The notes: a model not told the origin generated them from the sequence alone. A stretch of 47,925 nucleotides of DNA from a virus (IMGVR_UViG_3300045988_143263), one strand, 5' to 3'. Shown: positions 4,876-47,925, counted from the stretch's first letter. Translations and numbers: made by a program.

Positions 4876-4878
4876 ATT

Positions 4879-5406: not shown

Positions 5407-5411
5407 AAATT

Positions 5412-5430: not shown

Positions 5431-5434
5431 TCTC

Positions 5435-23882: not shown

Positions 23883-25739
23883 CTATATGGTTACGCCTTT
23901 ACTTATAACTCTACGGCGTCTTCTACGTATACCTGACGAGTTCTGCACATACACATTACCTCGCATTTCCTGTTCGGCAAGCCAGTTAAAATTAGGGTTC
24001 AGAATTTCCATCGCGGCAGTTGCATAGTTACGGCAATCAAGAGGCTCGTTACGCTCGTAGACTTTCACCCACTTTTCTTTTGTCTGCCCATTTTTATATT
24101 CAAATATTTTTTTCTCTGATAATAATCCTTTAAAGTATTCGGTATCATATCCTCTGTCAGAATCTAATGGGAAATGCATATAACCAGGACCAGGATCATG
24201 TAGTTTAATTCTTGCCATGATGGTCCCTTTACCATCATCAACCCCCAAATTAAACAACATAGCCCCCACACGGTTATTATTACTTGGCTTTCCTATAAAT
24301 GGTAAACCTACCCCACCACGCCCCCTGATAGAGTATATTCGCCTTGATTCTCTCGGCTTAGTAAAGCGATATACTTCTGTCGTAAAATGCCCACCAGAGT
24401 CAATACAAACGGAAGAAATCTGTAATTTTCGACCGTCACGGAATGACCAGCTACGGAGTAAGTATTCATCAAGTTGTTTCCAGACAACATCTTGTGCGGG
24501 ATCACCTGGGAATATTTTATATTCTATCCCCCATGACTCCTTACCTTTTCCCCAACCGACCAATTCACAAACTAAATACGTGTCCTGTACGTCAACACCA
24601 GCACTTAACAATAAAACATCATCTGGTAAAAACTCTTCAAACCTTATTCTGCGTTGCAACAAGTATTCAGGATCGATATCGTCTTTAGCATCCTCTTTCC
24701 ATGGCTCACCCAGCTTAAGGTTAATAAACTCCATTAATCCATTTTTATCGCGGTTTCTGGTTGCTTCCGTAAATTCTTCAACCAGCTCTGACAATGCAAC
24801 CCACGGGGAGTAAAGACTGTTAATATGAAAACCAACAATACCTTTAACTCCAGTATGTTCAGCTATCCATACCCCCTTCGCCAACCAATCAACGTCTGGT
24901 TTACCAGATCCGCGCATAATCCCGCCGCACTCACAGCACTCATATCTGGCCGTTTCCGGTAACGCCTCACCTGAATCGCTCTTATCCCATCTGACTTGCG
25001 ACCATTTCATCACCTGCATGGTGCCACAACATGGGCAAGGAACATGGTAGTAACGCTGATCGGAGAGCTTAAACCACTTGTGGATTTTGCTCGTTTCCTC
25101 CAAAACAGGAGTAGAAACAAAAACTTTCTTACGATTATGAAAGTTGGTAGTACGCTGAATACCTAGTTTTAGTGGGTCGCCCTCCTGCGTCACACCGTAA
25201 CGATCAATCTCATCAGCTAACAGTATTCGAATTGGCCTGGATGCAAGACCTGCTGGGGAATTAGCACCAACAAGTGCTATATATCCACCAGCGTAATGCT
25301 TCATACGTATAGTCGTGCTGGACTTTTTGGCTGCACCGCGCCCCTCTTTCCCTTCATGCAGCTTGTGTTTCAAACCAGGGGAATATTTGAACGTCGGATC
25401 AATACGCTCTTTTGAAAAAGCCTCAGCCGCCTCTACCGTTGGATAAATCATCAACTGAGGAGATGGCTCCTGATCTGCAAAGTAACCCATAACATTTAGC
25501 TGTAATTCGGATTTACCAATTTGCGAGCTACATTGCATCACTACTGTTTCTGTATCAGCGTCACCAATAACATCCATTGGTTCACGCAAATATGGCACTC
25601 GGCTTGTACGCCACGGCCCTGGCTCTGGAGACGTTCCCGGCGCTACATGACGATACTTATCAGCCCATTCGGAAACAGTTAGCCGTGATTTAGGGCGAAG
25701 CGCACGGAAAAAAGCGGTGCTCCATACTGTTTCGCCCAT
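23883..25739 (-). CDS. terminase large subunit (lambda gpA-like)
   Basis: 618 aa; terminase-like ATPase/nuclease character; follows the small-subunit gene. Confidence 0.85.
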   Translation of the reverse strand: MGETVWSTAFFRALRPKSRLTVSEWADKYRHVAPGTSPEPGPWRTSRVPYLREPMDVIGDADTETVVMQCSSQIGKSELQLNVMGYFADQEPSPQLMIYPTVEAAEAFSKERIDPTFKYSPGLKHKLHEGKEGRGAAKKSSTTIRMKHYAGGYIALVGANSPAGLASRPIRILLADEIDRYGVTQEGDPLKLGIQRTTNFHNRKKVFVSTPVLEETSKIHKWFKLSDQRYYHVPCPCCGTMQVMKWSQVRWDKSDSGEALPETARYECCECGGIMRGSGKPDVDWLAKGVWIAEHTGVKGIVGFHINSLYSPWVALSELVEEFTEATRNRDKNGLMEFINLKLGEPWKEDAKDDIDPEYLLQRRIRFEEFLPDDVLLLSAGVDVQDTYLVCELVGWGKGKESWGIEYKIFPGDPAQDVVWKQLDEYLLRSWSFRDGRKLQISSVCIDSGGHFTTEVYRFTKPRESRRIYSIRGRGGVGLPFIGKPSNNNRVGAMLFNLGVDDGKGTIMARIKLHDPGPGYMHFPLDSDRGYDTEYFKGLLSEKKIFEYKNGQTKEKWVKVYERNEPLDCRNYATAAMEILNPNFNWLAEQEMRGNVYVQNSSGIRRRRRRVISKGVTI

Positions 25740-25744
25740 GAGGT

Positions 25745-26305
25745 TTATTCTTCCTGCTTAATAAATCGGGATTCCTGGAGCGCCTGAAGCGCAAAATTAA
25801 TCTCGTCTTCAATAATGCGTTCGATCTCCCTGGCTGTTTTACCTTCACAACGGGGAGCTGCTCTTGGAGCAATACTAAATAAGCGGCTACGCAATTCATT
25901 AGCTGCCAGAAATGCATCATCCCTGACCGCATCTTTAGCGATGAGAGAGCCTTCCTTTTCTTCAAATTCAAGGCGTTTCAGCTTTGCCTGATAAATTTTT
26001 TCTGCGGTCTTAGCCTTGTTGAATTGCACCGCAACACCGGAAGTACCACCAGCTAATCCGGCATCATCAGCGGGTAACTCTGGTTGTTCCGAAGATATCC
26101 CATGCCCTCTTTTTCCGTTTTCAGCAGATACCTCACGACCAACCTGTCGGCTCGCTTCATAAGCCGCACTTGCTTTATCAAAATCCAGCTTGCCGCTTTT
26201 CAGCACTGGAATGCGACCGGAACGACAGAGCTTCGTAACCATTGCCGGAGAAATACCTTTCCGGCGGGCAAACTCTGACTTACTGACGATGGCCATTACT
26301 TGCAA
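25745..26305 (-). CDS. terminase small subunit (Nu1-like, N-terminal HTH)
   Basis: 186 aa; N-terminus SKSEFARRKGISPAMVTKLCRSGRIPV resembles the Nu1 HTH. Confidence 0.5.
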   Translation of the reverse strand: MQVMAIVSKSEFARRKGISPAMVTKLCRSGRIPVLKSGKLDFDKASAAYEASRQVGREVSAENGKRGHGISSEQPELPADDAGLAGGTSGVAVQFNKAKTAEKIYQAKLKRLEFEEKEGSLIAKDAVRDDAFLAANELRSRLFSIAPRAAPRCEGKTAREIERIIEDEINFALQALQESRFIKQEE

Positions 26306-26886
26306 CCATTAGCAAGATACTGAACAAATCCCTCATGCGTTTCATGCGCGTCGTGGTACTGACGATAAACATCCAGCAACAATGCAATTTCCATATCCGT
26401 CGCGGGAATACGTTCTTTATCAATAGCCAGGTACTTAATTTGAACAACAGGGGAAGAATTATCGTCTTCTTCCTGCGGCTGTTCATCGCTTAACATTTCG
26501 TCAAGCTCTGCATCATTAAACCCAAGCAGATCAATATCAAAATCATCATCCATTAACTCTTTGACTTCTTCGGCCAGAAGCTGCATATCCCAGCCAGCAT
26601 TTAAGGCCAGCTTGTTATCTGCAATCCTGTAAGCCTTCTTCTGTTTTTCAGAAAGGTTACTCAACCGAATCGCCGGAACTTTATCCATTTCCAGAATTTC
26701 GGCTGCTGCAAGCCGACCATGCCCCGCAATCAGTTCATTCTTTTCATCGATCAGCACAGGATTAGTGAAACCGAACTCACGGATACTGTTCACCAACTGT
26801 TCAACTTGCTCATCTGAATGAGTCCGTGAATTTTTGGCATATCTGAGCAGCTTACCGACTGGTAAATATTCGATTTTTAGAGCCAT
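26296..26886 (-). CDS. ParB-like nuclease domain protein
   Basis: 196 aa; ParB N-terminal motif NPVLIDEKNELIAGHGR; paralogue of 29553..30176. Confidence 0.7.
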   Translation of the reverse strand: MALKIEYLPVGKLLRYAKNSRTHSDEQVEQLVNSIREFGFTNPVLIDEKNELIAGHGRLAAAEILEMDKVPAIRLSNLSEKQKKAYRIADNKLALNAGWDMQLLAEEVKELMDDDFDIDLLGFNDAELDEMLSDEQPQEEDDNSSPVVQIKYLAIDKERIPATDMEIALLLDVYRQYHDAHETHEGFVQYLANGCK

Positions 26887-27443
26887 TTTTTAACCGCCAT
26901 AACACAACAGGTTAAAGAAAACTGTTTAACTTATTGATACTAAAAGAGAAAAATGACGATCTTTTTACTCATAAAAAATCACACAAACCAGCATAATTAT
27001 CTGATTTTATTAAGTTTTTATAAGTAAAAAGGATCTTGCGATGGTGTTTTGGTTAAAAGATTGGATGTATTTGCATGATTTATAACGATTTTTATCAGAA
27101 CAACATCACATTGGTTAAAGATCTGCGCGTATCTTGATGATCTAAAAGAAAATTTTCTACTTTCTTTTTACCAGCACAAATACAGCAAAAAATCACGTTT
27201 TCCCGATATTTTTCAATGAGATGAGTAAATTTCTTTTACCGCAACTTTTAACCTAACTTTTTTCACGTTTAGCTAGCCGAACATCGGGGTTCGAATGACC
27301 CGCATCCAACGCTTTTGGCCAGAAGGACCCAATTCTGCCGGACGATGAAACGATGCTCGTGCTCCCCCACAGACAGCCAGCGAGCGACGCTACAGAACAC
27401 AGTGAATACACTCTGCATAACAACACCATCAACCACACGATGA

Positions 27444-28163
27444 TTAACGAGAGAAGGTCTTAGAAAGAATGTCATCAATAGCCTTTGTGACTTCATCAGC
27501 AAACGCATCCTCACCAGCACGCAGCGCCACGCCATGCCAATCAAGACGCTGCGAATAGTTAGGTTGCTGGATAAACGTAAGGATCAACGTAGGACGCCGC
27601 CCAACGCGCTGCCAGACACCTGGTTGAAGCGGGTTACTTGTACCAGGTCGAACAACAAAAAACTCCGTAGGCTTGCCCTGACGGCGATTTTGATGCGCAT
27701 CTCGCTGAACTCTTAGGCCAGATAAGACCTGCTGTAATTGCCCCCGCGAAATATTCCCATATTTGTCCAGCTTTGCGCCGGGACCAGGAGCAAGCTGCCA
27801 GCCGTTAGGCAAATATCCACCAGCCCTTAGCGCCCCTTCTGAGCGTTTGTACTGTCGTTGGCCACCTTCGATTTGCGGGGTCAACGTTACAGGGGCTGGC
27901 GTTCCTCCCCATTCACGAGCATACACAATGGCTGTAGGATCGCTCTTCTTTGCGGCCAAAACGTAAGTAGAGTTCTGAATCCACGGCGTGGGCCTGTCAA
28001 ATACCCGATTAATTTCATTCTTAATCGCAGCCTGAGAAGCCTTTGCCGTTCTGGTTGCCGCAAGCGCCATTGCGAACGGCAATTCGCGTTCTTCAAGGCG
28101 CTGGAGTTGTCGTTGAATATCCTGAGAAGAAAAATCCATCTTTATCTCAATTCTGTCAGCCAC
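27444..28163 (-). CDS. hypothetical protein
   Basis: 239-aa ORF between two ParB-domain genes; Gly/Pro/Gln-rich, no family recognised. Confidence 0.35.
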   Translation of the reverse strand: MADRIEIKMDFSSQDIQRQLQRLEERELPFAMALAATRTAKASQAAIKNEINRVFDRPTPWIQNSTYVLAAKKSDPTAIVYAREWGGTPAPVTLTPQIEGGQRQYKRSEGALRAGGYLPNGWQLAPGPGAKLDKYGNISRGQLQQVLSGLRVQRDAHQNRRQGKPTEFFVVRPGTSNPLQPGVWQRVGRRPTLILTFIQQPNYSQRLDWHGVALRAGEDAFADEVTKAIDDILSKTFSR

Positions 28164-28179
28164 CAGCGCCTCCTACAGA

Positions 28180-29559
28180 CTACTTAATCAACGGCCGGAA
28201 AGCCGCCAGCACATCATCAGATCGTCCGATTGTTGAACCACCAGGCAACGGCAACTCAAACTCAAAACGAACAGCTTTCTCCAGACTCGCCCAACTAAGG
28301 GAATCATCGTTAATGACGTGCAAATACCAGCTCTTACAGTTGAATATTGACCGCTTAATCCTGAAACCATGTACACGGCACAACTGCTTCACTTCATCAT
28401 CAGAGTGAAACTTCTGGTAAAACCAGTGCCCCTTCCGGTACAACGCGGTAAAACCGTTATGATCAATAAAATAAAGCCGGCTTTTGGAACTCGCCGCTTG
28501 TGTTTGCTTCAGGACTGTTTCCAGCTCTCCACGGCTACGACCAGAAAAGAATATTGACCCACCAGCTTTACACAGGCCTTTCAGAACCGTCAGAACGGAC
28601 CATTCAGCCTCGACACTATCGACCGAGTTCAAAACGCTATCGCAAATCACGTAGTCGTAACGCCCTCGCGTTTTTAAGTCGTCCACCAGCGTATCAATCA
28701 TCCGGTTTGTTGCGGTCCTATCCAGAGTGTTTCCAGCGCCCTTACGGCGAAAAAGCTCGAGATCATGCAGGTTATATCCCTTTGCCCTGAGCATTCGCGC
28801 GTAGTCTCCCTGCCCCGAACCAAAATCAATTCCTCTTGGCGTCTTGGCAATGATCGGGAGGATCAACGACTCATACAGATTTGATTTCAGGCTGCCACCA
28901 TTACGCAACCGCATAAGCTGCGCATACGTCTGGATATATGTTGTTTTCTCCAGATGAGAATACTCAAATACACCATAAGTTTTATTCAGATAACTTTGGT
29001 ATTTTTCCTTCTCAACATCAGGGATCACAAACACCGTTAGCGGTGTGCGCGTCATTTTCGCTGCTAATGCATACTGAGCACAGTGAATAACCTCACCAGA
29101 CTGAGTAGCAACACAACCACCCCACGGACCATACTTGATAACCAGTTCCGCTATGTTCTTTCGAACATATGCCATTTTCGCGCGCATATTGCCTGAGATC
29201 TGGCTTGCCGATACCTGAACAAAACCATGCTTATCTTCCAGACCGGACACCCTGCAACGCTCATCTCCGCTATCAAAATCCGTTCCGTTATGCAGTTGGT
29301 TAAACCGTACTTCATCGTATACCGTCGTTTCACAGGGCAACACATACACCGCAGCACGCGTTATTCCCAACTTACGTAGCGCCTTCGTCCTTTGGTGTCC
29401 CGCCACCAGCAAATCGCCGCGCACTATCAATGGCTTCACAAGCCCCAGCTCCCTGACGCTTTCCGCCAGCCTCGCAAGATCATCCTCACCGATAAAACGC
29501 GGGTTATATTCCGCGCCGCGTAGGTGCGTTATGTCGTAATTCAGGTGAAGCATCAGCAC
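28180..29559 (-). CDS. ParB-like N-terminal domain fused to a class I SAM-dependent methyltransferase (putative DNA methyltransferase)
   Basis: 459 aa; N-terminal ParB-like segment (…LIVRGDLLVAGHQR…) and methyltransferase motif I IDFGSGQGDY. Confidence 0.6.
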   Translation of the reverse strand: MLMLHLNYDITHLRGAEYNPRFIGEDDLARLAESVRELGLVKPLIVRGDLLVAGHQRTKALRKLGITRAAVYVLPCETTVYDEVRFNQLHNGTDFDSGDERCRVSGLEDKHGFVQVSASQISGNMRAKMAYVRKNIAELVIKYGPWGGCVATQSGEVIHCAQYALAAKMTRTPLTVFVIPDVEKEKYQSYLNKTYGVFEYSHLEKTTYIQTYAQLMRLRNGGSLKSNLYESLILPIIAKTPRGIDFGSGQGDYARMLRAKGYNLHDLELFRRKGAGNTLDRTATNRMIDTLVDDLKTRGRYDYVICDSVLNSVDSVEAEWSVLTVLKGLCKAGGSIFFSGRSRGELETVLKQTQAASSKSRLYFIDHNGFTALYRKGHWFYQKFHSDDEVKQLCRVHGFRIKRSIFNCKSWYLHVINDDSLSWASLEKAVRFEFELPLPGGSTIGRSDDVLAAFRPLIK

Positions 29560-30176
29560 ACCTCCCCAGCCAGCAATGCGGATACAAATCCGATATAGCT
29601 GCCATTATCATCAACATAACGAGACACCGCGCAGTCAAAACGATCCGCTTCCTCATCCGTTGCCGGGATTTTATGACCTCCAAATGACAGGTACTGAACT
29701 TTTACGCCTGATTTGGCCTCATCCTTCTCAAATGGGATATCCATACCCTCTGTGTCATCGTAGACCGCCGCACTCAATAAGTTATCCAGTTCGCGCTGAG
29801 TAAAACCAATTGAGTCCAGAGCAAAATCATCGGCCGCAAGATCTGCAAGCTCCGCGCTTAACAACTCTTCATCCCAACCAGCATTCAGCGGAATACGGTT
29901 GTCGGCCAGACGATATGCCTTCTTCTGATTCTCCGTTAGCCCTTCCAGAACAATGCAGGGAACGTCATCCATCCCCAACTGAGTGGCCGCAGCAATTCGA
30001 CCATGACCAGCAATTACAACGTTGTTCTCGTCTATCAGGATCGGATTAGTCCATCCGTACTCCTGTATGCTGGCAACAATCTGATCTACCTGCTCCACGG
30101 AGTGTGTGCGAGCGTTCTTTTCATAACCAATCAACACAGAAAGTGGTAAAGAAACCACATTAAGATGTTTTGTCAT
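29553..30176 (-). CDS. ParB-like nuclease domain protein
   Basis: 207 aa; NPILIDENNVVIAGHGR motif; paralogue of 26296..26886. Confidence 0.7.
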   Translation of the reverse strand: MTKHLNVVSLPLSVLIGYEKNARTHSVEQVDQIVASIQEYGWTNPILIDENNVVIAGHGRIAAATQLGMDDVPCIVLEGLTENQKKAYRLADNRIPLNAGWDEELLSAELADLAADDFALDSIGFTQRELDNLLSAAVYDDTEGMDIPFEKDEAKSGVKVQYLSFGGHKIPATDEEADRFDCAVSRYVDDNGSYIGFVSALLAGEVC

Positions 30177-30421
30177 GCCGTTTATCCGCTAAAATCCCCT
30201 CGCTTGTGCAAGCAAGTGGGCCTCGGTTTGTATCCACGGCACCCTGTGGGTATGAATGACTGTCGTCAGGTCGCAACTGACGGCGGTCGCCCACCTTCCA
30301 GTAATAAAAAAGCCACCAGCATTAACTCCACAGCGAGCTGGAGTTAATGAGGCAGCTTTGGTTTGCGCATTATCGCAGCCCCTGATTAGCACAAGAGCTG
30401 CTGTAATGCGTTACGCAGGGA

Positions 30422-30739
30422 TCAAACGGAGGCAGCCGTTTCGTCGTCTTCAAGTACCGCGCCTTCTGGCAAATCAACACAGGCAAAAACAGGGCAGCCA
30501 GGATAACGATCATCTTCCATCGCAATCAGCATCGACTCACCGAACCACTCTGTGGTAGCACGGCCATCAGCCGCCTGATAGTGAATCAGATACTGGTTTT
30601 CGCCATTTGCATACTGAGCACGGGCTTGAACTTCTCCCCACTCTTCACTGATACGCATTGTTACCAGTTGGGATAATTCAAACTTAAACGGAACAGACTC
30701 TGCACCAATGGCAATCGGTTTATCTTCTTTCTTTTCCAT
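30422..30739 (-). CDS. hypothetical protein (start trimmed to MEKKEDK)
   Basis: Internal ATG at 30739 preceded by an AGGTGA RBS and an upstream terminator; ORF-track start at 30808 would run through that terminator. Confidence 0.35.
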   Translation of the reverse strand: MEKKEDKPIAIGAESVPFKFELSQLVTMRISEEWGEVQARAQYANGENQYLIHYQAADGRATTEWFGESMLIAMEDDRYPGCPVFACVDLPEGAVLEDDETAASV

Positions 30740-30750
30740 AACATCACCTG

Positions 30751-30780
30751 AAAATAAAAAGCCCCGCGACACCGCGAGGC
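30751..30780 (-). terminator. rho-independent terminator
   Basis: Minus-strand hairpin gcctcgcg-gtgt-cgcggggc followed by UUUUUAUUUU. Confidence 0.45.
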
Positions 30781-30937
30781 TGTAAGAGTTACTTTCGATA
30801 TAAATCAAGGCGCATTTGCTCCCGCTTAAGCCGAAAAGCTCTCTGCGCCACTAAGATGCGCCACAAGACACCAGCAATAACCACCAGCGAGATACAAAAA
30901 CACACGGCCACAACCATCAGAAAAATGCCAAGACCAT

Positions 30938-31144
30938 TCATGAAACTATCCATTCTTCAATGAATATCTCCAGTAATGTCAAGAGATACGCCGTCCCCAG
31001 CGCGGTTCCTACCGATATAGCTAAGACAAACCTCAAAGATAACGAGGTGTCTTTCGCTTTTCTCCAGACGTAAGCGCCAGCCAGAAATACCAACAAATCT
31101 CTTATTGGAAGCGGAAACCAGAACAAATCACTCGGCAAGTCCAC
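30938..31144 (-). CDS. small putative membrane protein
   Basis: 68-aa ORF with two hydrophobic segments. Confidence 0.3.
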   Translation of the reverse strand: MDLPSDLFWFPLPIRDLLVFLAGAYVWRKAKDTSLSLRFVLAISVGTALGTAYLLTLLEIFIEEWIVS

Positions 31145-31146
31145 GG

Positions 31147-31602
31147 TTATATCCTTCCATTCATTTTTATCGGATGACCAGATAGCCTTACGCAGTTGAG
31201 CTGTAAAGCTCCGGTATCAACTAAATAATCAACTAACATGATTAGAGATTCATATTCAGCCAGATAGCTAACCTGACGCATTCGACCGCCGTTGTTCTCC
31301 AGAATGTCGGCCACCTTTGCAGCCAACTCGCTTAGACAGGAGAACTTATTCCCATATATCGTTTTATACTCGCGCTTCTGGCATTCTTCGGCTTGCGGCT
31401 GGTTATCGAGAACTATCAGCGACCGATAACTATCAAGGAAGTCCACAATCTCATTCAGGCACTCTTTGGCTGCCTCATCGTGACTTTTTCCGTATGCTTC
31501 ATGGAGGACTTTCATCCTCATCATTGCTCCGTCACATATAGTCGAAAGCGCGTAAAGCACATCACTAACCGCCATTTCTTTTTCGGTGCTTGTCGAAGGC
31601 AT
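31147..31602 (-). CDS. hypothetical protein
   Basis: 151-aa ORF co-oriented in an operon-like array. Confidence 0.35.
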   Translation of the reverse strand: MPSTSTEKEMAVSDVLYALSTICDGAMMRMKVLHEAYGKSHDEAAKECLNEIVDFLDSYRSLIVLDNQPQAEECQKREYKTIYGNKFSCLSELAAKVADILENNGGRMRQVSYLAEYESLIMLVDYLVDTGALQLNCVRLSGHPIKMNGRI

Positions 31603-31676
31603 CCCATGTTCTCCTTTGTCTGGATGTAAAAAAGCCCCGGCAATTGCCGAGGCTCGTTGTTCGTTATCGTTACGGT

Positions 31677-31877
31677 TTAATGCTCGCGTCGTCCGGCGAC
31701 AACTTCGGATTTGTATTTCAGGTCGCCCAGCAAGAATTGCAGTTTAAGCATCTTTGCCGCTGTGTAGTTCCCTGATTCCACAACCTCTTTCATGAGGTCA
31801 TAAACGGTCGCTACATCATCAGCCAGGAACTCTTTGCGTTGCTGCTCAGTCGCACGTTTGAAGGAAATACGCATCAC
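31677..31877 (-). CDS. hypothetical protein
   Basis: 66-aa ORF overlapping the upstream gene by 4 nt. Confidence 0.3.
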   Translation of the reverse strand: MMRISFKRATEQQRKEFLADDVATVYDLMKEVVESGNYTAAKMLKLQFLLGDLKYKSEVVAGRREH

Positions 31878-32143
31878 TCATCATCTCCTGCCGCACATAC
31901 AACCTCACAAAAAACATCAGCGGAATGTTTCTCCTTGAACGAATGACGCTCAAAACCGCACTCAATATCAGGCGCAAAAACATCCACCACATACGGTCTT
32001 TCAGAATGTTTGTTTTCCCAACGATAAACCGTAGTGACGTTGAAATGTTTTAACGCTTCACGGAACTCAACGCTGCCCGTCAGGTTTTTTGAGGTCAGGT
32101 ATTGCAGGAGGTTTTTTACTACTTCACGGTCTTGTACTTTCAT
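31874..32143 (-). CDS. hypothetical protein (first gene downstream of a repeated promoter-leader cassette)
   Basis: 89-aa ORF; ATG at 32141..32143 directly follows the conserved leader …ccggagataacccg. Confidence 0.4.
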   Translation of the reverse strand: MKVQDREVVKNLLQYLTSKNLTGSVEFREALKHFNVTTVYRWENKHSERPYVVDVFAPDIECGFERHSFKEKHSADVFCEVVCAAGDDE

Positions 32144-32255
32144 CGGGTTATCTCCGGTTTAACCAGGGCGGGTATCGCTCGGTTTCGGGTATAACCATAG
32201 GAAATTTTTTCCCATCCGTAAAGCACTTTTTATATAAATCTATAATTATATAATT
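32144..32255 (-). promoter_or_regulatory. repeated promoter-leader cassette, copy A
   Basis: Near-identical to 38527..38645 and to window end plus start; minus strand reads TATATAATTATAGATTTATATAAAAAGTGC-TTTACG-17 nt-TATGGT-leader with GGAGA RBS. Confidence 0.5.
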
Positions 32256-32843
32256 CTATGACACTTGCCAGAGAGCATCATGCAACTGGATACCTCCGTT
32301 GCACTGGTTGCCCCAGCCATGCCAGCCATCAGGTAAATCACCGCGAGCAAACAGCTCAATACGAGGAACATCGCCTAACAGCTTTACCAGCTTGTCACGG
32401 ACCACATCAGGCTTCCGAGAATGCTCCAGACGAGGCGATGTAAACGACTGAATGATCCCCGCATCAAGACGTGTCGGTAGTTTGCCTTTCACTGCAAACA
32501 AGCAATCTTCACTGTTTGCACGAGTCATATGCCCCATCCCCATCACCAGCTTATCTGGTTGTCGGCTACCACATTTGTTCCATGTGAAGCCCTTCATGGT
32601 CATCAGCCTGAATCCCCATGCTTTCACCACCAGCAACGCTTCTTCTGGCTGAGTCGGAACCCACCACATGGCCAACAAACACGATTCAGGATTAGCAAGC
32701 TGCCAGACAGGAATACGAGCAATATCCTCAGCTTTCATCGTTGGATACTTAAAACCAGCGCCACGATTCCCATCCTTACACTTGTCTTTGTATTCCCAGG
32801 GGGGATCTGCATAAATCAGATTAAACAATGCAATTGCCTCCAT
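32256..32843 (-). CDS. MT-A70 family N6-adenine DNA methyltransferase
   Basis: 195 aa; catalytic DPPW motif (LIYADPPWEY). Confidence 0.75.
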   Translation of the reverse strand: MEAIALFNLIYADPPWEYKDKCKDGNRGAGFKYPTMKAEDIARIPVWQLANPESCLLAMWWVPTQPEEALLVVKAWGFRLMTMKGFTWNKCGSRQPDKLVMGMGHMTRANSEDCLFAVKGKLPTRLDAGIIQSFTSPRLEHSRKPDVVRDKLVKLLGDVPRIELFARGDLPDGWHGWGNQCNGGIQLHDALWQVS

Positions 32844-33151
32844 GTTAGTTGTGTCTCCGGCGCTTATCTCCGGCAGTCATAACGCTGGCCAGCTCTACAG
32901 CAAACACAACGAAAAGGGCACTAACCAGACTGATTAATGCCCTTGCCTGTTGTGTGCCGGATATCGCCCGACAACGCTGTTTTGGTAACACGGCTACAGT
33001 TCCGTGCCGCTCCAGCTTTTACCCCTTTGCGGATAACAGGCCCTGCCTGTAACTTAGCCCCACGTTCGCCCGAAATGCGCACCAGGCACGCATAAAGATG
33101 AGCACGAAGGAAGTAACTCCACCGCGCTTATCTTTATGTGTGAGAGTGAAT

Positions 33152-33227
33152 TGGTGGCCCCTACCGGATTTGAACCGATGACCGTGCGATTATGAGTCGC
33201 CTGCTCTAACCACTGAGCTAAGGGGCC
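33152..33227 (-). tRNA. tRNA with CAU anticodon (tRNA-Ile2/Met-like)
   Basis: 76 nt; cloverleaf with acceptor GGCCCCU/AGGGGCC, GCUC/GAGC D-stem, anticodon loop CUCAUAA, GGUUCAAAUCC T-arm and 3' CCA; 5' half resembles E. coli ileX from memory. Confidence 0.8.
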
Positions 33228-33396
33228 ATATTTGATCTGTTTGTCTGGTGTGGCGCCGCGCACGAAAATCCCAGCCAATAAATTCAGGATTTTTGGGCGC
33301 GGCGGCATATCAGACAAACATGGTTGATGCGTGCGCTAATGAGAAAAGCGCATAGAATGTTGTAACTATATATTTATATAATTATAGAAATATATA

Positions 33397-33606
33397 TTAC
33401 TTTGGACAGTTGATTTCCCATGCCCTGTTATGAGCCAGAATATCTTTCTTTGTCTGGCGGTCCATAACATCGATATCGTGATCAGTCAGGTAGATGGGCT
33501 TTACCCAATCACAGGCGGTATCAACCACCACCGGGACGCTTCCACGACTCCCGCAGCTCGCGATCAACATCGTCATCAGCCATATGGTTAACACTCTGCT
33601 GTACAT
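33397..33606 (-). CDS. Rz1-like outer-membrane lipoprotein spanin (o-spanin)
   Basis: 69 aa; signal peptide with lipobox LIASC; overlaps the 3' end of the Rz-like gene in another frame. Confidence 0.55.
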   Translation of the reverse strand: MYSRVLTIWLMTMLIASCGSRGSVPVVVDTACDWVKPIYLTDHDIDVMDRQTKKDILAHNRAWEINCPK

Positions 33607-33799
33607 TGCCCACCTCTTTTGTCACTTCTATACGCCGCTCCGCAGTGGCTTTTACGGCGGCTGCATTCTCATTAATGCGCTGCTTTTCAGCTTCATCTTC
33701 GGCCTTTTCTCGCCCCTTCATACGACCAAAACCAAACGCGCCGAATGCAACCAATATAATTGTGCCAATAAATGACAAAACGGCCTTCAAACCAGTCAT
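33521..33799 (-). CDS. Rz-like inner-membrane spanin (i-spanin)
   Basis: 92 aa; N-terminal TM helix followed by a charged coiled-coil region; directly downstream of the endolysin. Confidence 0.55.
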   Translation of the reverse strand: MTGLKAVLSFIGTIILVAFGAFGFGRMKGREKAEDEAEKQRINENAAAVKATAERRIEVTKEVGNVQQSVNHMADDDVDRELRESWKRPGGG

Positions 33800-34338
33800 A
33801 CCACCACTCGCTCTTTCATCCAGCCGTAGACAAACGACTCATTCGCCTCGCGCTTCTCCGCCAACTCCAGATAGCGTTCGCCCTGCGTACAGTTCAGCGA
33901 CGTCAGCATCACCCGTTCGCCGTCTTTTCCCCGATTCCCAAGATAAGCACGCAGCGCATTAATGGTACGTGGACCGATTCGTCCATCTGCATCCAAATCG
34001 GGATACAGCTTCCCACGCAGATTGAACACATTCAGCCAGCGTTGAAGCATTTTGGACGCCACTGTTGGCCCCATATTCACACCGGTATCACACAGCTCTG
34101 CGGCAATATCAGAGGATAATGCGGCCACCTGATCAAAGCGTGGTCCGTACCAGTAATCAGCCTCAAGGATTTCTAGTGCCTGTTCGCGGGTTAAATCGCG
34201 CATATCGCCACGGTATCCATGAGCACGGGCAGTGTTCTGAGTAATGCCCCACTTTGTTGGGCCTCCCTTGTCGTCAGGGTGATCCACATAGCCGCCCTCT
34301 TTTCCAAGAATGCTGTTAAAAATCTCATCTTTGGTCAT
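33796..34338 (-). CDS. endolysin (GH108-type N-terminal domain with peptidoglycan-binding C-terminal domain)
   Basis: 180 aa; N-terminus MTKDEIFNSILGKEGGYVDHPDDKGGPTKWGIT typical of GH108 lysins. Confidence 0.75.
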   Translation of the reverse strand: MTKDEIFNSILGKEGGYVDHPDDKGGPTKWGITQNTARAHGYRGDMRDLTREQALEILEADYWYGPRFDQVAALSSDIAAELCDTGVNMGPTVASKMLQRWLNVFNLRGKLYPDLDADGRIGPRTINALRAYLGNRGKDGERVMLTSLNCTQGERYLELAEKREANESFVYGWMKERVVV

Positions 34339-34621
34339 GATTAAATCCTAATGCGTCAACTATCCGCGCCAGATTGCCCCTGAAATACAGAACAACGATG
34401 CAGATAATCAGATTTCCAATAACCACCAGCCAGTGGGATTCTTGATAAAGACCGAACACATAACGGAAGGGAACATTGGCGTATACAATGACGTAGATAT
34501 AAGCCAGAAAGGAAACAAATGGACGATGCCTGGAGTCTTTCCGTCGATAAAGCATCAGCGCCATTACTATTACTGTGCAAAGCACCGCATTAATCAGTGC
34601 TGACGGGTCACTGCTTACCAT
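34325..34621 (-). CDS. lysis-associated membrane protein (possible second holin/antiholin)
   Basis: ~98 aa from internal Met; three hydrophobic segments; between holin and endolysin. Confidence 0.35.
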   Translation of the reverse strand: MVSSDPSALINAVLCTVIVMALMLYRRKDSRHRPFVSFLAYIYVIVYANVPFRYVFGLYQESHWLVVIGNLIICIVVLYFRGNLARIVDALGFNHDQR

Positions 34622-35003
34622 TTGAACCCCCTCCACGTAAGCGGGAAAGCATTCCAAAGATGCTACCGAGATCCTGGCTGTTTACGAACGTGAGGATTTT
34701 AATTGTCAATGCAGCCACAATAACCGCACCAAGCGCATCAAGAGGTCGATCGTTGTAGCTGGTCCATTTGGCAAGAAATGAGCCAACTAACGGCGCTCCA
34801 ATCACTCCAACAATGAACGATGTAAAGAAATAGCCAATCAGCTTGAGACGGCTAATATTCACCGCTGTAGCAACATAGAAAACAGCGCCAGCAAATGCCC
34901 CGAATACAACGCCGTAATCAATACCAGTTGCAATACCAAAAACGCTGGCACCCATCAGGCCACCAGCAGCAACGGCCGTACCGGAAATTGGTTCTGCTGA
35001 CAT
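34608..35003 (-). CDS. putative holin (start trimmed to MSAEP)
   Basis: ~131 aa, Gly/Ala-rich TM helices; ATG at 35001..35003 has a GAGGA RBS and sits 12 nt after a terminator, so the ORF-track start at 35051 is rejected. Confidence 0.5.
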   Translation of the reverse strand: MSAEPISGTAVAAGGLMGASVFGIATGIDYGVVFGAFAGAVFYVATAVNISRLKLIGYFFTSFIVGVIGAPLVGSFLAKWTSYNDRPLDALGAVIVAALTIKILTFVNSQDLGSIFGMLSRLRGGGSNGKQ

Positions 35004-35015
35004 TGAAATCCTCGT

Positions 35016-35047
35016 TAAAAAAAAGCCCCGCCGAAAAAGGCAGGGCT
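35016..35047 (-). terminator. rho-independent terminator immediately upstream of the lysis cassette (tR'-like)
   Basis: Minus-strand hairpin AGCCCUGCC-UUUUUC-GGCGGGGCU followed by U8. Confidence 0.55.
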
Positions 35048-35553
35048 TCATAAAGCAACAAATTACGCGGTAATCGCTTAACGCAGTTTTACTACGTTAA
35101 ATGAAACACTACACCCAGTTACCACCTAAAACAAGGTTTTCCCATAAAAAAACCTTCATATCGTGGTTAATCGATCAATAAAAAAGCAATGTTCAACTTT
35201 TTACCAACCGAACATCCCGACCAGGACTTCCATAATATTCGCCGATATGCCACTGCTTAAGTTGAGTAATCTTCTCCAACTTAACTCCCATAGAGTCCAG
35301 TTTCTGCCATGTTTTCGGTTGTATGTGCTTCATTACCCGCTCTGAATATCTGAATACTGCTCGTAAGCGCATGGTTTCTCACTACAGCTTATATAAGTGG
35401 TTTTTCCAGCGGTTTTGCGCCGCGCTGCGCTTATCTTTGATTCCCTCTCTGGCAATTCCAGAATATAAGTACAACACCACACGGCGATTGCTAACTCTCA
35501 ACCACTGGCTGGGATAGCAACGTCTGTATACACGGGAAATAAGCATCTTTGCT

Positions 35554-35841
35554 TTACGGTTTTTCATCGTTTGCCCCCTGCTTTTCTGCCCTTAACACCA
35601 TGTGAGAACCATCATCCAGCTCCCAATTGATTTCACCGCCTTCTGCCATGACAAGATGCCAAACGAGTTGTGCGGCCTCGTTGGTTACATCACGACCGCG
35701 ATCATTGCCTACACGGCGTTTTGTTCCGTCACCTAAATCGCGCATTTTGGCCAACACGATGGTTTTTGATAGCGGTGAAAAACCAAGCTGTAGCCGTGCG
35801 GAATTACTCACTGGTTGCCCCCTGAATACGTTTAAACTCAA
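35554..35841 (-). CDS. hypothetical protein
   Basis: 95-aa ORF in a co-oriented accessory array. Confidence 0.3.
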   Translation of the reverse strand: MSLNVFRGQPVSNSARLQLGFSPLSKTIVLAKMRDLGDGTKRRVGNDRGRDVTNEAAQLVWHLVMAEGGEINWELDDGSHMVLRAEKQGANDEKP

Positions 35842-36481
35842 TTACCCATACCCACGGGTTAGATAGCCAGTTCTCTTGCCCGTAAATACCGCGCCAGATA
35901 TCACCAAAGCCAACGCGATAAACAGCTTCAGGTGGCGTAATCTTGTACGTCGCCGGAGTTGCGCCTTCTGCTTTAGCATCTGCCTCGCTCATGTCATGCA
36001 GCCGTTCCACACGCACGTCGGTAATTTCCAGCAAAATACGCGAAGCCCAGCGCGGCATGTGAATTGATGGACACCACCCGCCATCAAACTTTTCATTCAC
36101 AGTGTGAGGTTTCCAGTCAGTATCATCGGGTATCGACCACAGGCCGTAATCACCAGGCTTTTGCTCGCAACTGGCCCGATAAATCCTTGCTGCGTTCTTC
36201 TCATCGCCACGACAAAGGTTGTCGTTCCAGTCCACACTGCAACCATCCTCATTGCCTAATATCGCCCACGCTTCACGGACCCATATGCGATCACCAACGT
36301 TACCGAACGGGCATAAACCATGTTCCGGTGCATCCATAACGTGGGTATAGACACCATTGCGTTTCTTTGTCGGTTTACGGATAACCAGGCAGTTATCGGC
36401 CCTGACATTTTTTACAGGTCGGCGAGTCTGCGTTTTCCTTCCTTCGAGGATGGCCCGGACCATCTCATCGTTAAAAATCAT
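35804..36481 (-). CDS. hypothetical protein with ASCH-like N-terminal motif
   Basis: Start placed at MIFNDEMVRAILEGRKTQTRRP (the GRKT.T.R signature resembles ASCH/PUA-like domains); Cys/His-rich C-terminal region. Confidence 0.35.
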   Translation of the reverse strand: MIFNDEMVRAILEGRKTQTRRPVKNVRADNCLVIRKPTKKRNGVYTHVMDAPEHGLCPFGNVGDRIWVREAWAILGNEDGCSVDWNDNLCRGDEKNAARIYRASCEQKPGDYGLWSIPDDTDWKPHTVNEKFDGGWCPSIHMPRWASRILLEITDVRVERLHDMSEADAKAEGATPATYKITPPEAVYRVGFGDIWRGIYGQENWLSNPWVWVIEFKRIQGATSE

Positions 36482-37458: not shown

Positions 37459-38526
37459 TCAGGCTTTCAATAGCGATTCTTTTAAATATCGGGCATCAGC
37501 CAGGGCGTTTGGAGTAATCTTGCGAACCCATGCATTACGGGTTGGACTCCACTTAAAGGCGCGTGATTTAAGCAGCGAACGAATGTTTGCCTCTGGTTTG
37601 CCAGGGAAATAAAACAGGATGCGGTTATCCTCTGGATCTATCTCCATAGAAAAGCCGTCGTATTCTTCGCGCTGTGCTCCTGTTACAGACTTGACCGATT
37701 CAAGCTCCTTAATACGGCTCTGTAGTCGTTTGATTTCGGCGTTATTGTTGCTCAGTGCGTATGAAGGGAATCCGATGCGCCCACAGAAATCTCCGGCCAG
37801 TAACTCTTTGGCTTCGCTTTCTGTAAACCTGAGATCGATTAATGCAGAAAGCTGCTGTATTTGGTCTTTTTTGTATTTGCGAATGGCCTTATTTGCGGCC
37901 TTCATTTTGACGTGTGACTTCATGCAGCCTTGCAGCTTACGAAGCAACTTAAATAGCGCATCAGGATCATCAGACGAAATTCCATTACGCCCAACACCTG
38001 CGGCTTTGCTCTCGTAGTGTGATGCTTTACTTTCGCATTCAACAAACGCTTTTCTGAATAACGCATCAGCTTTAGACAAACGGCGGCGATGGCCTTTCGC
38101 GCTATAATGGTCAACTAAAATCGGCTGGCCTAACGGGATCACATCCAACAGGTCATGCGCTCGCTTATGCGCTACCGCACCTTCTTTTCTGGCTTTTTCT
38201 GCACGAGCAATATATCGGGCAAGACGCGCGTTCTGGCGTTCCTGATAGGTGTTTACGTAATCATCTCCGCGCTGCTGCTGTTCAAGCCATGCTTTGCGCA
38301 GATCTTCTGTTACGTCCACCAGCTCCGCAGGGATACAACCTGTTTGGGCTTCATAAGAGTAACCATCCTCATAGATGCGCCCATCGTCTTCAACAAAGAA
38401 AAAGGTTTCGTGCTCATCGCTTTTGACCATACGACCATTAACATGGCGTAATAGGTAGCCAGTATCAGTGCTCAACAGGCTGTTAGGGTTGTTGATCCAG
38501 TCAGAAATAATTACTTGTTTATTCAT
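37459..38526 (-). CDS. DUF3560-like phage protein (start trimmed to MNKQVIISD)
   Basis: ~355 aa; ATG at 38524..38526 directly follows the conserved leader of the repeated cassette, which the ORF-track N-terminal extension would read through. Confidence 0.45.
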   Translation of the reverse strand: MNKQVIISDWINNPNSLLSTDTGYLLRHVNGRMVKSDEHETFFFVEDDGRIYEDGYSYEAQTGCIPAELVDVTEDLRKAWLEQQQRGDDYVNTYQERQNARLARYIARAEKARKEGAVAHKRAHDLLDVIPLGQPILVDHYSAKGHRRRLSKADALFRKAFVECESKASHYESKAAGVGRNGISSDDPDALFKLLRKLQGCMKSHVKMKAANKAIRKYKKDQIQQLSALIDLRFTESEAKELLAGDFCGRIGFPSYALSNNNAEIKRLQSRIKELESVKSVTGAQREEYDGFSMEIDPEDNRILFYFPGKPEANIRSLLKSRAFKWSPTRNAWVRKITPNALADARYLKESLLKA

Positions 38527-38647
38527 CAGATTTCTCCGGTTTAACCAGGGCGGGTATCGCTCGGTTTCGGGTATAACCTTAGGAAATTTTTTCCCACCTG
38601 TAAAGCACTTTTTATATAAATCTATAATTATATATTTATAGATTTTC
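38527..38647 (-). promoter_or_regulatory. repeated promoter-leader cassette, copy B (immediately downstream of Q-like gene)
   Basis: -35 TTTACA (rc of 38599..38604), 17-nt spacer, -10 TAAGGT (rc of 38576..38581), AT-rich upstream motif, ~45-nt leader with GGAGA RBS. Confidence 0.5.
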
Positions 38648-42494: not shown

Positions 42495-43148
42495 ATGACT
42501 ATCTCTGTAGGTATTTTCAACGGAAAAGGCGGCGTAACCAAATCAACAATTGCCCGTGCTTTAGCAGTTGCTTATGCAAAGGCTGGCTGGAATGTATGCC
42601 TGATCGATATGGATGTGCTTAACGGAACGGTAACACGTTGGGTACAACGCAGAATGGCCAACAATATCGAACCAGCAATCGCGGCGCAGCCGTGCGGCAC
42701 ACCATCACAAGTCCAGAAAATCATCGAATCAGAAGTATACGACCTGGTTATCGTCGATGGCGGTGCCTACGCATCTGAATCAGTACCGAAGCTCTCTGAA
42801 TTTCTGGATATGGTTATTTTGCCAACCAGATTCTCTACCGATGACCTGGAAACCACCGTTAACACAGCTCACGGCATCGTTAAAAAGGGTGTACCAATCA
42901 AGAAAATTTGCATGGTGTTTTCCGGCGCGGCTGAAAACGAAGCTGACTATATTGAAGCCCAAGAGTACCTGGCTAATACGCCATACTTTGTTGTCGATAA
43001 GTACATTCCCCACAAGCCAGCTCTGAGCAAAGCTCAGGATAAGGGCTTAAGCCTCATTGAGTGCTCATACGTTGCGCCACGCAAAAAGGCAGACGACGTT
43101 ATTCAGGGGATTATCAACCAGCTTGAGGCTCTGACTACTGCCGCGTAA
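42495..43148 (+). CDS. parA: ParA-family partition ATPase
   Basis: Deviant Walker A box NGKGGVTKST ten residues from the chosen start; start set at the second ATG (GGAG RBS). Confidence 0.8.
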   Translation: MTISVGIFNGKGGVTKSTIARALAVAYAKAGWNVCLIDMDVLNGTVTRWVQRRMANNIEPAIAAQPCGTPSQVQKIIESEVYDLVIVDGGAYASESVPKLSEFLDMVILPTRFSTDDLETTVNTAHGIVKKGVPIKKICMVFSGAAENEADYIEAQEYLANTPYFVVDKYIPHKPALSKAQDKGLSLIECSYVAPRKKADDVIQGIINQLEALTTAA

Positions 43149-43191: not shown

Positions 43192-43440
43192 ATGGCCGCA
43201 CCATCAAAACCACCAAAGAAGAACAGCAAAGGCGTACCGCCATCGATCGAACAACCGCAGGTTTTCGACCCGACTGAAACGCCAACCAGAACCAAATCAG
43301 GTGGGGCACAAATGGCGTTTAACGTCGACCCTGAATTTAAACGCGAGTACAAAACGTTCGCCAGCTCAATGGATATGTCATTGAAAGAAGTGCTGACAAA
43401 GTCTTTTGAGTTACTCAAGGCTCAATACAACCAGAAGTAA
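43192..43440 (+). CDS. ParG-like ribbon-helix-helix centromere-binding protein
   Basis: 82 aa; disordered basic N-terminus and C-terminal RHH-like segment MAFNVDPEFKREYKTFASSMDMSLKEVL; directly downstream of parA. Confidence 0.5.
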   Translation: MAAPSKPPKKNSKGVPPSIEQPQVFDPTETPTRTKSGGAQMAFNVDPEFKREYKTFASSMDMSLKEVLTKSFELLKAQYNQK

Positions 43441-43662: not shown

Positions 43663-43686
43663 AAAAAAAGGCCCCCGAAGGGGCCT
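43663..43686 (-). terminator. rho-independent terminator (minus strand; hairpin shared with plus-strand gene end)
   Basis: ggcccc-cgaa-ggggcc 7-bp stem; A7 run on plus strand gives a U7 tail on the minus strand. Confidence 0.5.
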
Positions 43687-43691
43687 AATCG

Positions 43692-43814
43692 CTACTTGCT
43701 GCTAATGTTTATCGTCACATTCAGAGCGTTATCAGTAATCTTCCAACCCTCCCCATGTGGCGTAAACAAAGCTCCAGTAACAACGATAAAAATACACATG
43801 TAGTATTTTTTCAT
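43692..43814 (-). CDS. small hydrophobic peptide (signal-peptide or membrane-like)
   Basis: 41 aa MKKYYMCIFIVVTGALFTPHGEGWKITDNALNVTINISSK; followed by a terminator; ~170-nt structured upstream leader. Confidence 0.3.
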   Translation of the reverse strand: MKKYYMCIFIVVTGALFTPHGEGWKITDNALNVTINISSK

Positions 43815-44231
43815 TGTGTGGCCCTTACAGGCCGTTTCACGGCATCCCCACCGACGAAAATGACGCGAGAGCAAGCACGCTGTTTGTGCCTGCGTGGTAC
43901 GGCAAGTGGATAATCCTTTCCTGAAAGTCGGTGCCCGGTTGCGAATCGGCGAAAAGGCCCCGCGTAATGTTACACCGCAGCCCCTTCATAATGAAGGGAT
44001 AAAAATGTATTGTTTTTCATTAAGTTAAATACACACCACAAAAATCACTCGCTTTTGTGCTCTAACAAACCAAATTTATTTGGACAATTTTATTCAGTTA
44101 GGTAAGAATATGATTGCTGTTTGTGCTTGCGTGGTTGTATTTATACAACAACGTAATGCTGAAAGGACCGCGAATCCGATCAGCACGAAAGAACCGTCCT
44201 CAATAGGGCGGTTTTTTTGTTTCTTCACTCA

Positions 44232-44959: not shown

Positions 44960-45056
44960 CGCCATTGGTGGACACTTTCCGAGCCGTAGCAAAATCTACG
45001 GCCGGGATTGGAACCCCGTAGACACAATGGCGCATACCGCGTTAGCGGTTTTTTTA
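44960..45056 (+). ncRNA. candidate c4-like regulatory small RNA
   Basis: Three predicted hairpins (44984..45001, 45002..45018, 45036..45048) ending in T7; two blocks are complementary to the downstream leader at 45128..45148. Confidence 0.35.
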
Positions 45057-45221
45057 TGCGTAAAGCACTGCTACACCCAAATTATGGTGGGGCGTGCGGG
45101 GGAGTCGTAAGACTCGCCGGTTCGTCATTGTGTCCGGTAGTTCCAACCCTGCACGTCTCACCACCCAATGATTGGAACCTGACGGTGGTGAGTATCCTTA
45201 ACCTTTAAGGGAATCATCACA

Positions 45222-47493: not shown

Positions 47494-47874
47494 TTACTTA
47501 ACGAGGAATAAAAATGGTTTATTGTTCGGCGGTGTAATCGGGGCTGGCTCGCTTTTGCTCATGCGATCAGTGTACCAGGCCAACTCCTTGTCAAAGTAAG
47601 CCTGATTAAAATAGGCCATGAATGTAGTTTCAAATCCATAACGACCGCTAATACGCAGCATCTGATTGCCGTTCTCTGTTTCCAGATATACCTGGGCACG
47701 TTCCTGATTCTCCTTCAGCCAGGTTAAAGCCTCATCGCATGAGGACACACGATACTCATCATCGTAGCAGTCATCGATGCGGCTTGAGGAAGAACGGCAA
47801 ATCACGCCAACAGAACCAGCCAGGATAGTTTGAATTTTAAGGAAAGCGTTTTTGCGGATTTTAATCATGCTCAT
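47494..47874 (-). CDS. hypothetical protein (first gene downstream of a repeated promoter-leader cassette)
   Basis: 126-aa ORF; ATG at 47872..47874 directly follows the conserved leader …ccggagataacccg. Confidence 0.4.
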   Translation of the reverse strand: MSMIKIRKNAFLKIQTILAGSVGVICRSSSSRIDDCYDDEYRVSSCDEALTWLKENQERAQVYLETENGNQMLRISGRYGFETTFMAYFNQAYFDKELAWYTDRMSKSEPAPITPPNNKPFLFLVK

Positions 47875-47925
47875 CGGGTTATCTCCGGTTTAACCAGGGC
47901 GGGTATCGCTCGGTTTCGGGTATAA
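47875..47925 (-). promoter_or_regulatory. 5' half of repeated promoter-leader cassette (partial copy at window end)
   Basis: Identical to 32144..32194 and near-identical to 38527..38578; continues into window positions 1..60 if the replicon is circular. Confidence 0.5.

Follow-up and report, generated by a model that had tools for sequence, protein, structure and literature searches.

What do ParB-fold proteins do beside the terminase genes of a phage-plasmid whose own ParA is encoded elsewhere? The question is raised by positions 25,745 to 30,176 of the viral sequence IMGVR_UViG_3300045988_143263, which was analyzed over its whole length of 47,925 nucleotides (the window). Two small ParB-domain proteins, called ParB196 and ParB207 here, and a third ParB domain fused to an S-adenosylmethionine (SAM) methyltransferase are encoded in this region. 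A reading of the DNA made from the sequence alone (the sequence-only reading) had joined them with a 239-aa protein and an MT-A70 methylase into one candidate DNA-modification or anti-restriction module, in which the ParB domains might also recognize cos or pac. Three unlike things are combined in that module. A phage cassette that is common and already catalogued, one small ParB and the fusion, has been elaborated in this lineage into the three ParB-fold genes, which an inferred cos site splits. The four open reading frames (ORFs) of the region lie exactly where they had been placed, and these, together with the genes for TerS, TerL, and MT-A70, are all on the minus strand. "ParB nuclease" is merely an old Pfam name and serves here as a domain label. 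The genes of main concern are the following.

29553..30176, minus strand: ParB207, a small orphan protein of 207 aa with the ParB/Srx fold, upstream partner of the fusion
28180..29559, minus strand: fusion of a ParB/Srx fold to a class I SAM methyltransferase (phrog_5475), ORF of 459 aa
26296..26886, minus strand: ParB196, a second small paralog with the ParB/Srx fold, first gene after the inferred cos site

A two-gene cassette beside terminases

Homologs of the fusion number at least 716 (~460 aa, 45%–70% identity) and come from Serratia, Pantoea, Klebsiella, Bradyrhizobium, Xanthobacteraceae, and many metagenomes. Three genomic contexts, including those in Serratia and Bradyrhizobium, were looked up. 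A small ParB_N protein (~200 aa) is directly upstream of the fusion in two of them and one gene upstream in Bradyrhizobium, and a terminase is downstream of the fusion in each. A scan of IMG/VR yielded 77 loci with 60 distinct full-length fusions, 52 of which have enough upstream sequence to judge. In 43 of these 52 the fusion is directly preceded, on the same strand, by the small ParB gene, and in another four that gene is no more than four genes away. Of 49 pairs, 47 have a small-ParB stop codon that overlaps the inferred fusion ATG. Downstream, the first ORF to reach 390 aa encodes a large terminase in most of the 54 loci checked, from the families GpA (19), Terminase_6 (~19), Terminase_3 (5), and TerL_ATPase (3). 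The position of the cassette is independent of the packaging mechanism. Bacteroides phage BS-TP3 has the same order at 36% identity (a ParB-like protein, a protein with a methyltransferase domain, TerS, and TerL), and in related phages the corresponding stretch upstream of TerS and TerL is filled by DNA methyltransferases. Judged from gene order and sequence, the small ParB and the fusion are a widespread, conserved, and translationally coupled module in phages of Proteobacteria and Bacteroides.

The sequence-only reading had called both the combination and the copy number unusual. The first half of that claim fails, since the pairing of a small ParB with the fusion is common by the counts above, and the second half stands in part, since the extra, TerS-coupled ParB is lineage-specific. 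Among the IMG/VR loci, a gene like ParB196 after the fusion was found only in the E. coli/Yersinia phage-plasmid lineage (L015–L020), and independent extra copies of the small ParB occur in two other lineages (L046 and L070). ParB196 and ParB207 are paralogous, as had been proposed, with 48% identity over their full length of about 200 aa (E 1e-61). ParB207 is about as distant from ParB196 as are the small ParBs of other phages, which means that the duplication did not happen recently.

Pfam, PHROG, and a family profile agree that three ParB-domain proteins are present, one of them fused to a SAM methyltransferase. Against the gathering cut-off of 26.3 bits for Pfam ParB_N (PF02195), ParB196 scores above it (33.7 bits), while ParB207 (24.8 bits, E 2e-5) and residues 9–70 of the fusion (24.3 bits, E 3e-5) fall slightly under it. 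ParB207 matches phrog_620, "ParB-like", at E 3e-74, and ParB196 matches the same family; the identity of the small ParBs is beyond doubt because PHROG ParB families match at E 1e-74. Both carry GHGR as the P-motif (box II), of which the G and R are at least 90% conserved among 44 small-ParB homologs, as is a box III-like DN. The ParB_N domain of the fusion has only ~28% identity to either small ParB. The stop codon of ParB207 overlaps the ATG of the fusion as TGATG, with GGGGAGG just before the junction. This ATG, at 29553, is the fusion's probable start and would give a protein of 457 aa.

The small ParBs also resemble ParB-fused type II DNA methyltransferases over the N-terminal ~150 aa of the latter (phrog_498, E 1e-50 to 4e-52; PDLC03229, E 2e-40), and the match to phrog_498 is far weaker for the fusion's own ParB fold (E 1e-11). 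A further family, phrog_21315, joins a ParB fold and MT-A70 in one protein. Relatives of ParB207 were identified in 398 GenBank phage records. Among 40 hits sampled, many are at the extreme start or end of the phage record, and the annotations are ParB-like protein or DNA methyltransferase. The only match of the ParB genes in a PADLOC scan is the methyltransferase-associated ParB module. Compared with the ParB::N6_N4 adenine methyltransferases, which include phrog_498, PDLC03229, and a B. cereus ParB-methylase cited in PMC5512222, the likeness is in the N-terminal ~150 aa (E 1e-40 to 1e-52) and in the frequent position of sampled hits at the start or end of a genome record, as for the terminase-adjacent genes of this phage. 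The window differs in that its ParB module is a separate 200-aa protein and in that the fused methyltransferase is UbiG-like, without a DPPY-type motif. With the canonical CTP-gated clamps ParB and Noc of ParABS systems, the window's proteins have in common the N-terminal fold, the GxxR P-motif, a box III-like asparagine, and local alignments to Spo0J and Noc. Unlike those clamps they have no helix-turn-helix (HTH), C-terminal dimerization domain, ParA partner, or parS, and they stay below the TIGR00180 cut-off.

The fusion consists of a ParB_N domain with AGHQR (residues 1–100), a conserved middle domain (100–230), and a Methyltransf_23 domain (233–400). It matches phrog_5475, a family of no assigned function, at E 1e-265. 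Residues 233–400 match Methyltransf_23 (PF13489) with 32.6 bits, passing the cut-off of 27, and the motif IDFGSGQGDY, pointed out in the sequence-only reading, is within this match. A family profile of 50 sequences matched B. subtilis Spo0J (E 4.5e-8) and UbiG (E 4e-6) among PDB sequences, and the AlphaFold2 model is compact (pLDDT 93.3, pTM 0.89). Conservation was assessed with 50 homologs that have 45%–73% identity to the window protein. Invariant among them are G54 and R57 of the P-motif GHQR, residues D245, F246, G247, G249, and E268 of SAM motifs I (GIDFGSGQGDY) and II, E268 being the acidic residue of motif II, and many residues of the middle domain (~100–230), including a loop, FNQLHNGTD. 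The methyltransferase is classed as UbiG/Methyltransf_23-like by sequence, and the fusion is almost certainly an active SAM-dependent transferase. In the AlphaFold2 model the middle domain repeats the order of secondary structure of the ParB fold, which is only a hint of a second ParB-like domain; alignment of residues 1–95 with 100–200 in hhalign was not significant (E 0.11).

A ~145-aa Cys/His-rich protein (HCARCL...CGV...TCRNFQFG) is encoded directly after the fusion in 27 of the 60 distinct loci (e.g., L007:2210-2644). Searches of Pfam, PHROG, and the PDB gave no match to it, and no homolog exists in the window, where the 239-aa gene holds the slot that it occupies elsewhere. This protein may be a third component of the cassette, missing from the window's phage-plasmid.

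The putative cos region and the rest of the phage-plasmid

The sequence-only reading placed the ParB genes directly upstream of the terminase genes, and TerS and a TerL of the gpA type do follow directly. It also treated the ParB genes as one block, which does not fit the position of the inferred cos site: this site, in a 557-nt gap, sets ParB196 apart from the other three genes. The features between the fusion and the end of TerL are listed below.

27444..28163, minus strand: 239-aa protein, phrog_1924 ("minor tail protein"), last gene before the inferred cos site
26887..27443, minus strand: non-coding, partly AT-rich gap of 557 nt between the 239-aa gene and ParB196, with no credible ORF
27289..27300, minus strand: inferred cosN with the 12-nt cohesive end GGTCATTCGAAC, placed from GenBank record termini and a conserved core
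25745..26296, minus strand: TerS (phrog_57; so annotated in RefSeq on the ATCC 25922 plasmid), start-stop overlap with ParB196, probable start ATG at 26296
23883..25739, minus strand: TerL of the lambda gpA type (GpA_ATPase E 1e-76, GpA_nuclease E 1e-84)

The GenBank record of Yersinia phage vB_YpM_41 begins with GGTCATTCGAAC followed by CCCGATG, and that of vB_YpM_44 begins with CCCGATG and ends with GGTCATTCGAAC. With two independent record termini that differ by exactly 12 nt, as a 12-nt cohesive end would make them, and a terminase of the gpA type, the putative cosN was therefore placed at 27289–27300, with a 12-nt end. In related lineages, whose fusions are 69%–90% identical, the core GGGTCATTCG(A/T)ACCCCG is the best-conserved island of a gap that has otherwise diverged. 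Between cosN and the start of ParB196 there are five TTTAACC sequences in both orientations at 26889–27253 (365 nt); the whole window has 28 matches to TTWAACC, and at this place in the gap many repeats of the GTTAACC type are present in the related lineages. This cluster resembles a cosB-type array and offers candidate protein-binding sites, for which TerS, with its HTH-like N-terminus, is a more likely binder than ParB196. With cos in the gap, virion DNA would end with ParB207, the fusion, and the 239-aa gene and would start with ParB196, TerS, and TerL. The Yersinia phage records number ParB196 as gene 1, and its stop codon overlaps the ATG of TerS as TAATG, which suggests that the two are co-translated.

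The 239-aa protein has no Pfam or NCBIfam match. Its AlphaFold2 model, built with 51 homologs (pLDDT 86.5), appears to have a fold like that of HK97 gp10. It differs from the gp10 family of neck and tail-completion proteins in its length of 239 aa, its extra helices, the lack of a Pfam match, and its location just before cos, apart from other head-tail genes. In Pseudomonas phage MD8 a homolog is the final gene of the genome, others are just upstream of a Nu1-like TerS and a gpA-type TerL in Sinorhizobium phage phi2LM21 and two metagenomic contigs, and one is 49 nt from a contig end. The family (the window, L011, L012, and L090–L092) is consistently last before cos or the genome end, away from other head-tail genes. 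The most fitting reading is a virion or assembly protein that accompanies terminases of the gpA type.

Upstream of ParB207 are the MT-A70 gene, found where the sequence-only reading had put it, and one copy of a repeated promoter-like element.

32256..32843, minus strand: MT-A70 methyltransferase (MT-A70 82.6 bits, DPPW as motif IV, phrog_359, PADLOC type II methyltransferase)
32139-32258, 38522-38639, and 47870-47925 joined to 1-56, minus strand: three copies of a ~115-nt promoter-like element with a structured leader

The MT-A70 protein is likely a genuine N6-adenine DNA methyltransferase, separate from the cassette and conventional. The ~115-nt element has an AT-rich promoter-like part followed by a conserved leader (predicted fold −22.3 kcal/mol, z-score −3.8), and an ATG stands right at the end of each copy. 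Three operons, among them the one leading into the ParB207 unit, may share it as a regulated promoter and leader. A scan for sigma-70 promoters over 25500–36000 found fewer sites than in shuffled sequence and was uninformative. Three strong terminator-like hairpins with T-tracts (30760–30781, 31632–31655, and 35022–35049, minus strand) lie within the late gene run upstream of ParB207, which suggests that RNA polymerase needs antitermination to reach the ParB and terminase genes. A single tRNA gene with a CAT anticodon (33152–33227, minus strand) is located between the lysis genes and MT-A70; ARAGORN calls it tRNA-Met, while RefSeq annotates the ATCC 25922 copy as tRNA-Ile.

The window is a complete E. 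coli phage-plasmid of ~48 kb, collinear over its whole length with a plasmid of E. coli ATCC 25922 (48,488 bp), and has 99% identity to this plasmid and to the three Yersinia phages named next. The stretch 25700–30400 (4.7 kb) has 99.3%–99.5% identity to ~70 E. coli replicons, the ATCC 25922 plasmid among them, with 80 of 83 matching places on plasmids, and also matches Escherichia phage vB_EcoM-613R2 and Yersinia phages vB_YpM_39, vB_YpM_41, and vB_YpM_44. RefSeq annotates the ATCC 25922 plasmid with RepA, a ParA locus, a RelE-type toxin-antitoxin pair, a P2-like contractile tail, a lambda-like head and terminase module, lysis genes, and one tRNA. The plasmid's own ParA (42495–43145) and an 82-aa adaptor or partner (43246–43437) are more than 12 kb from the ParB-fold genes. 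Near the ParA locus and a gene with an ORF6N domain are Rfam matches to ryfA (43664–43962, minus strand), isrK (44983–45055, plus strand), and C4 antisense RNA (45080–45168, plus strand), which suggest antisense-RNA control of immunity of the P1/P7 type. The tail-fiber region (4821–7579) has 85%–87% identity to the ATCC 25922 plasmid, compared to 97%–99% for the rest, and adjoins a gene of a recombinase family (3373–3924). It is consistent with a variable or invertible host-range segment.

Possible functions of the cassette

We favor, tentatively and with somewhat more reserve than assent, the reading that the cassette is a late, nucleic-acid-modifying accessory of a cos-packaging phage-plasmid, regulated by a nucleotide triphosphate (NTP) and acting on DNA before packaging. 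Each ParB fold would bind an NTP, as ParB-CTPase folds do, and the small ParB would pair with the ParB fold of the fusion through NTP-dependent engagement of the N-domains. The complex would ride freshly replicated phage DNA without sequence specificity, and the fusion methyltransferase would modify that DNA shortly before the terminase packages it, so that progeny genomes would be protected from host defenses. ParB196, whose translation appears to be coupled to that of TerS at the head of the packaging operon, would probably give a related ParB-fold activity at the terminase–cos complex. The identity of the NTP, the heterodimer, and the protective effect are parts of this reading that we infer.

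A link to DNA modification is supported because the small ParBs match ParB-fused DNA methyltransferases and because ParB::MT-A70 fusions exist. The module proposed in the sequence-only reading is in this respect plausible, and it matches published speculation. In the available portions of the survey by Kaljevic et al. (PNAS 2025, PMC12704722), fusions of ParB-CTPase domains to Methyltransf_23 and to N6_N4 methyltransferases are enriched in phages and prophages, "perhaps in anti-defense", and a ParB-fold::SAM-methyltransferase fusion bound ATP. The construct list of that survey includes Methyltransferase23 fusions from a bacterial metagenome-assembled genome and a gut phage, and for the gut-phage fusion also a pocket mutant. 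These fusions resemble that of the window in having the same two Pfam domains in the same order, in phage enrichment, and in the pocket arginine of GxxR; the same portions give no function and do not describe an adjacent small ParB or synteny with terminases. A passage in Burke et al. (PMC8256090), citing Iyer et al. 2013, proposes that ParB proteins direct DNA-modifying enzymes during packaging. In the literature searched, we found no tested function for terminase-adjacent ParB proteins or for the cassette of small ParB and fusion. The published methylome of the ATCC 25922 lysogen lists only GATC, CCWGG, RTACN4GTG, and GAGACC/GGTCTC (PMC12679398), with no extra motif for these genes in a lysogen whose late genes are expected to be silent. 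The lack of an extra motif is what such silence predicts, and this methylome says little about the cassette because the ParB and fusion genes are late.

Several points weigh against a DNA-modifying cassette. No HTH, dimerization, or other DNA-binding domain was detected in ParB196, ParB207, or the fusion in Pfam and NCBIfam scans. A Foldseek search of the PDB with the fusion matched generic class I methyltransferases of small molecules and tRNA (best E 6e-9), including structural-genomics proteins, Trm9, glycine N-methyltransferase, CcbJ, METTL6, and AzeJ, with 10%–18% identity and TM-scores of 0.5–0.68. No DNA methyltransferase is among the top 50 of these matches or among the Pfam and PDB-profile matches, and the viral models of BFVD added nothing beyond generic class I methyltransferases and ParB. 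The fusion has no C5 motifs and no PP dipeptide anywhere, and so has no motif IV, (D/N/S)PP(Y/F/W). Because the methyltransferase is UbiG-like and without this motif, DNA methylation by the fusion is something we infer only, from its context. The heterodimer of ParB207 and the fusion is proposed by analogy with closure of the ParB N-gate, and the position by the terminase may be merely a permissive slot for accessory genes. The wider module of the sequence-only reading loses two members. The 239-aa protein was rejected on its apparent gp10-like fold and its own synteny with gpA-type terminases, and MT-A70 was rejected as a part of the conserved cassette, being present within 6-kb flanks only in loci of the E. 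coli lineage. The copy of the ~115-nt element at 32139–32258 separates MT-A70 from the transcription unit leading to the ParB genes.

An alternative that is unlikely but by no means negligible is that the small ParBs are packaging accessory factors, NTP-dependent and possibly nicking, which serve as terminase cofactors at cos or pac, with the fusion as an add-on. No rival is stronger for ParB196, which would work together with TerS on the cosB-like TTTAACC sites, and a packaging-linked role for this protein is possible. This alternative would account for ParB196 being the first gene after cos with its TAATG coupling to TerS, for the cassette adjoining the terminase in most loci, and for the many sampled ParB207 relatives at the start or end of their records. 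HK97-type phages reportedly need an extra HNH nuclease, HK97 gp74, encoded beside cos as a terminase cofactor. The likeness to gp74 is that of an accessory gene at the genome end by cos and the terminase; the ParB fold is unrelated to it, and the terminase of the window is of the gpA type, which has its own nuclease. The specific recognition of cos or pac by the ParBs suggested in the sequence-only reading is also unlikely, as the cassette accompanies four unrelated terminase families, of both cos and headful types, and the ParBs lack a sequence-specific DNA-binding domain, whereas TerS has an HTH-like N-terminus. Most related phages, moreover, carry only the fusion-coupled small ParB and no TerS-coupled copy. 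Nuclease and NTPase activities of ParB domains are on record, and the nicking of DNA by the ParB domain of a ParB-methylase, which speaks for a packaging factor, is described as non-specific by Iyer et al. 2017 (PMC5512222).

We give modest weight to a second alternative, also unlikely, in which the fusion is not a DNA enzyme. As in Srx and SerK, a nucleotide bound by its ParB/Srx fold would serve as substrate or regulator, and its methyltransferase would target a nucleotide, a nucleotide-derived signal, RNA, or protein in counter-defense or host takeover. The methyltransferase is closest in fold and profile to enzymes acting on small molecules, tRNA, and protein, and the ParB-fold proteins have no detected DNA-binding domain. 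The conserved middle domain, with its invariant FNQLHNGTD loop, matches no known function, and the discussion in PMC12704722 notes that ParB folds can be enzymes or scaffolds without clamp function and suggests unusual ligands. However, the ParB fold recurs fused to genuine DNA methyltransferases (N6_N4 and MT-A70) in the same phage context, the strict late-operon place by the terminase suits DNA maturation better than early counter-defense, and no nucleotide-signaling genes were noted adjoining the cassette in the annotated contexts examined.

Returning to the reading of a late DNA-modifying accessory, a sharper version of it is rather doubtful. Here the small ParB and the fusion would form an NTP-gated, heterodimeric, DNA-riding complex, whose UbiG-like methyltransferase would write a non-canonical, sequence-independent modification as DNA enters the terminase or would methylate a nucleotide. 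That the ParB-fold proteins are centromere-binding proteins for partition of the phage-plasmid is very improbable and was rejected: the element does persist as a plasmid (80 of 83 E. coli places) and ParB_N is the fold of partition proteins, but the TIGR00180 scores (40.1, 31.0, and 16.4 bits) are far below the cut-off of 58.45 with matches confined to the N-domain, HTH and dimerization domains are absent, ParA and its adaptor form a separate and distant locus, and homologs occur in chromosomal prophages and free phage isolates. The probability left over after these readings belongs to functions beyond those considered.

Meaning for tailed phages

The ParB::Methyltransf_23 architecture is already known, catalogued as phage-enriched in PMC12704722, and the cassette is an ordinary accessory module that holds no surprise for a specialist. 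Terminase-adjacent ParB-fold genes are nevertheless common in tailed phages, as the GenBank phage records with a ParB207 relative indicate, and the literature found assigns them no function. The phage-plasmid of the window provides a tractable model, since the standard strain E. coli ATCC 25922 carries it as an inducible plasmid-prophage and close Yersinia phages have been isolated free. It could show what non-partition, NTP-binding ParB/Srx folds do by the terminase and whether phage DNA is modified by a methyltransferase that lacks the motifs of DNA methyltransferases. Should the cassette not protect DNA, the outcome is routine annotation of accessory late genes. If it does, it adds a class of anti-restriction enzyme that current methyltransferase annotation misses, and if the NTP-gated complex proposed above is true, phage genome protection would gain a new class of enzyme, overlooked for want of DNA-methyltransferase motifs.

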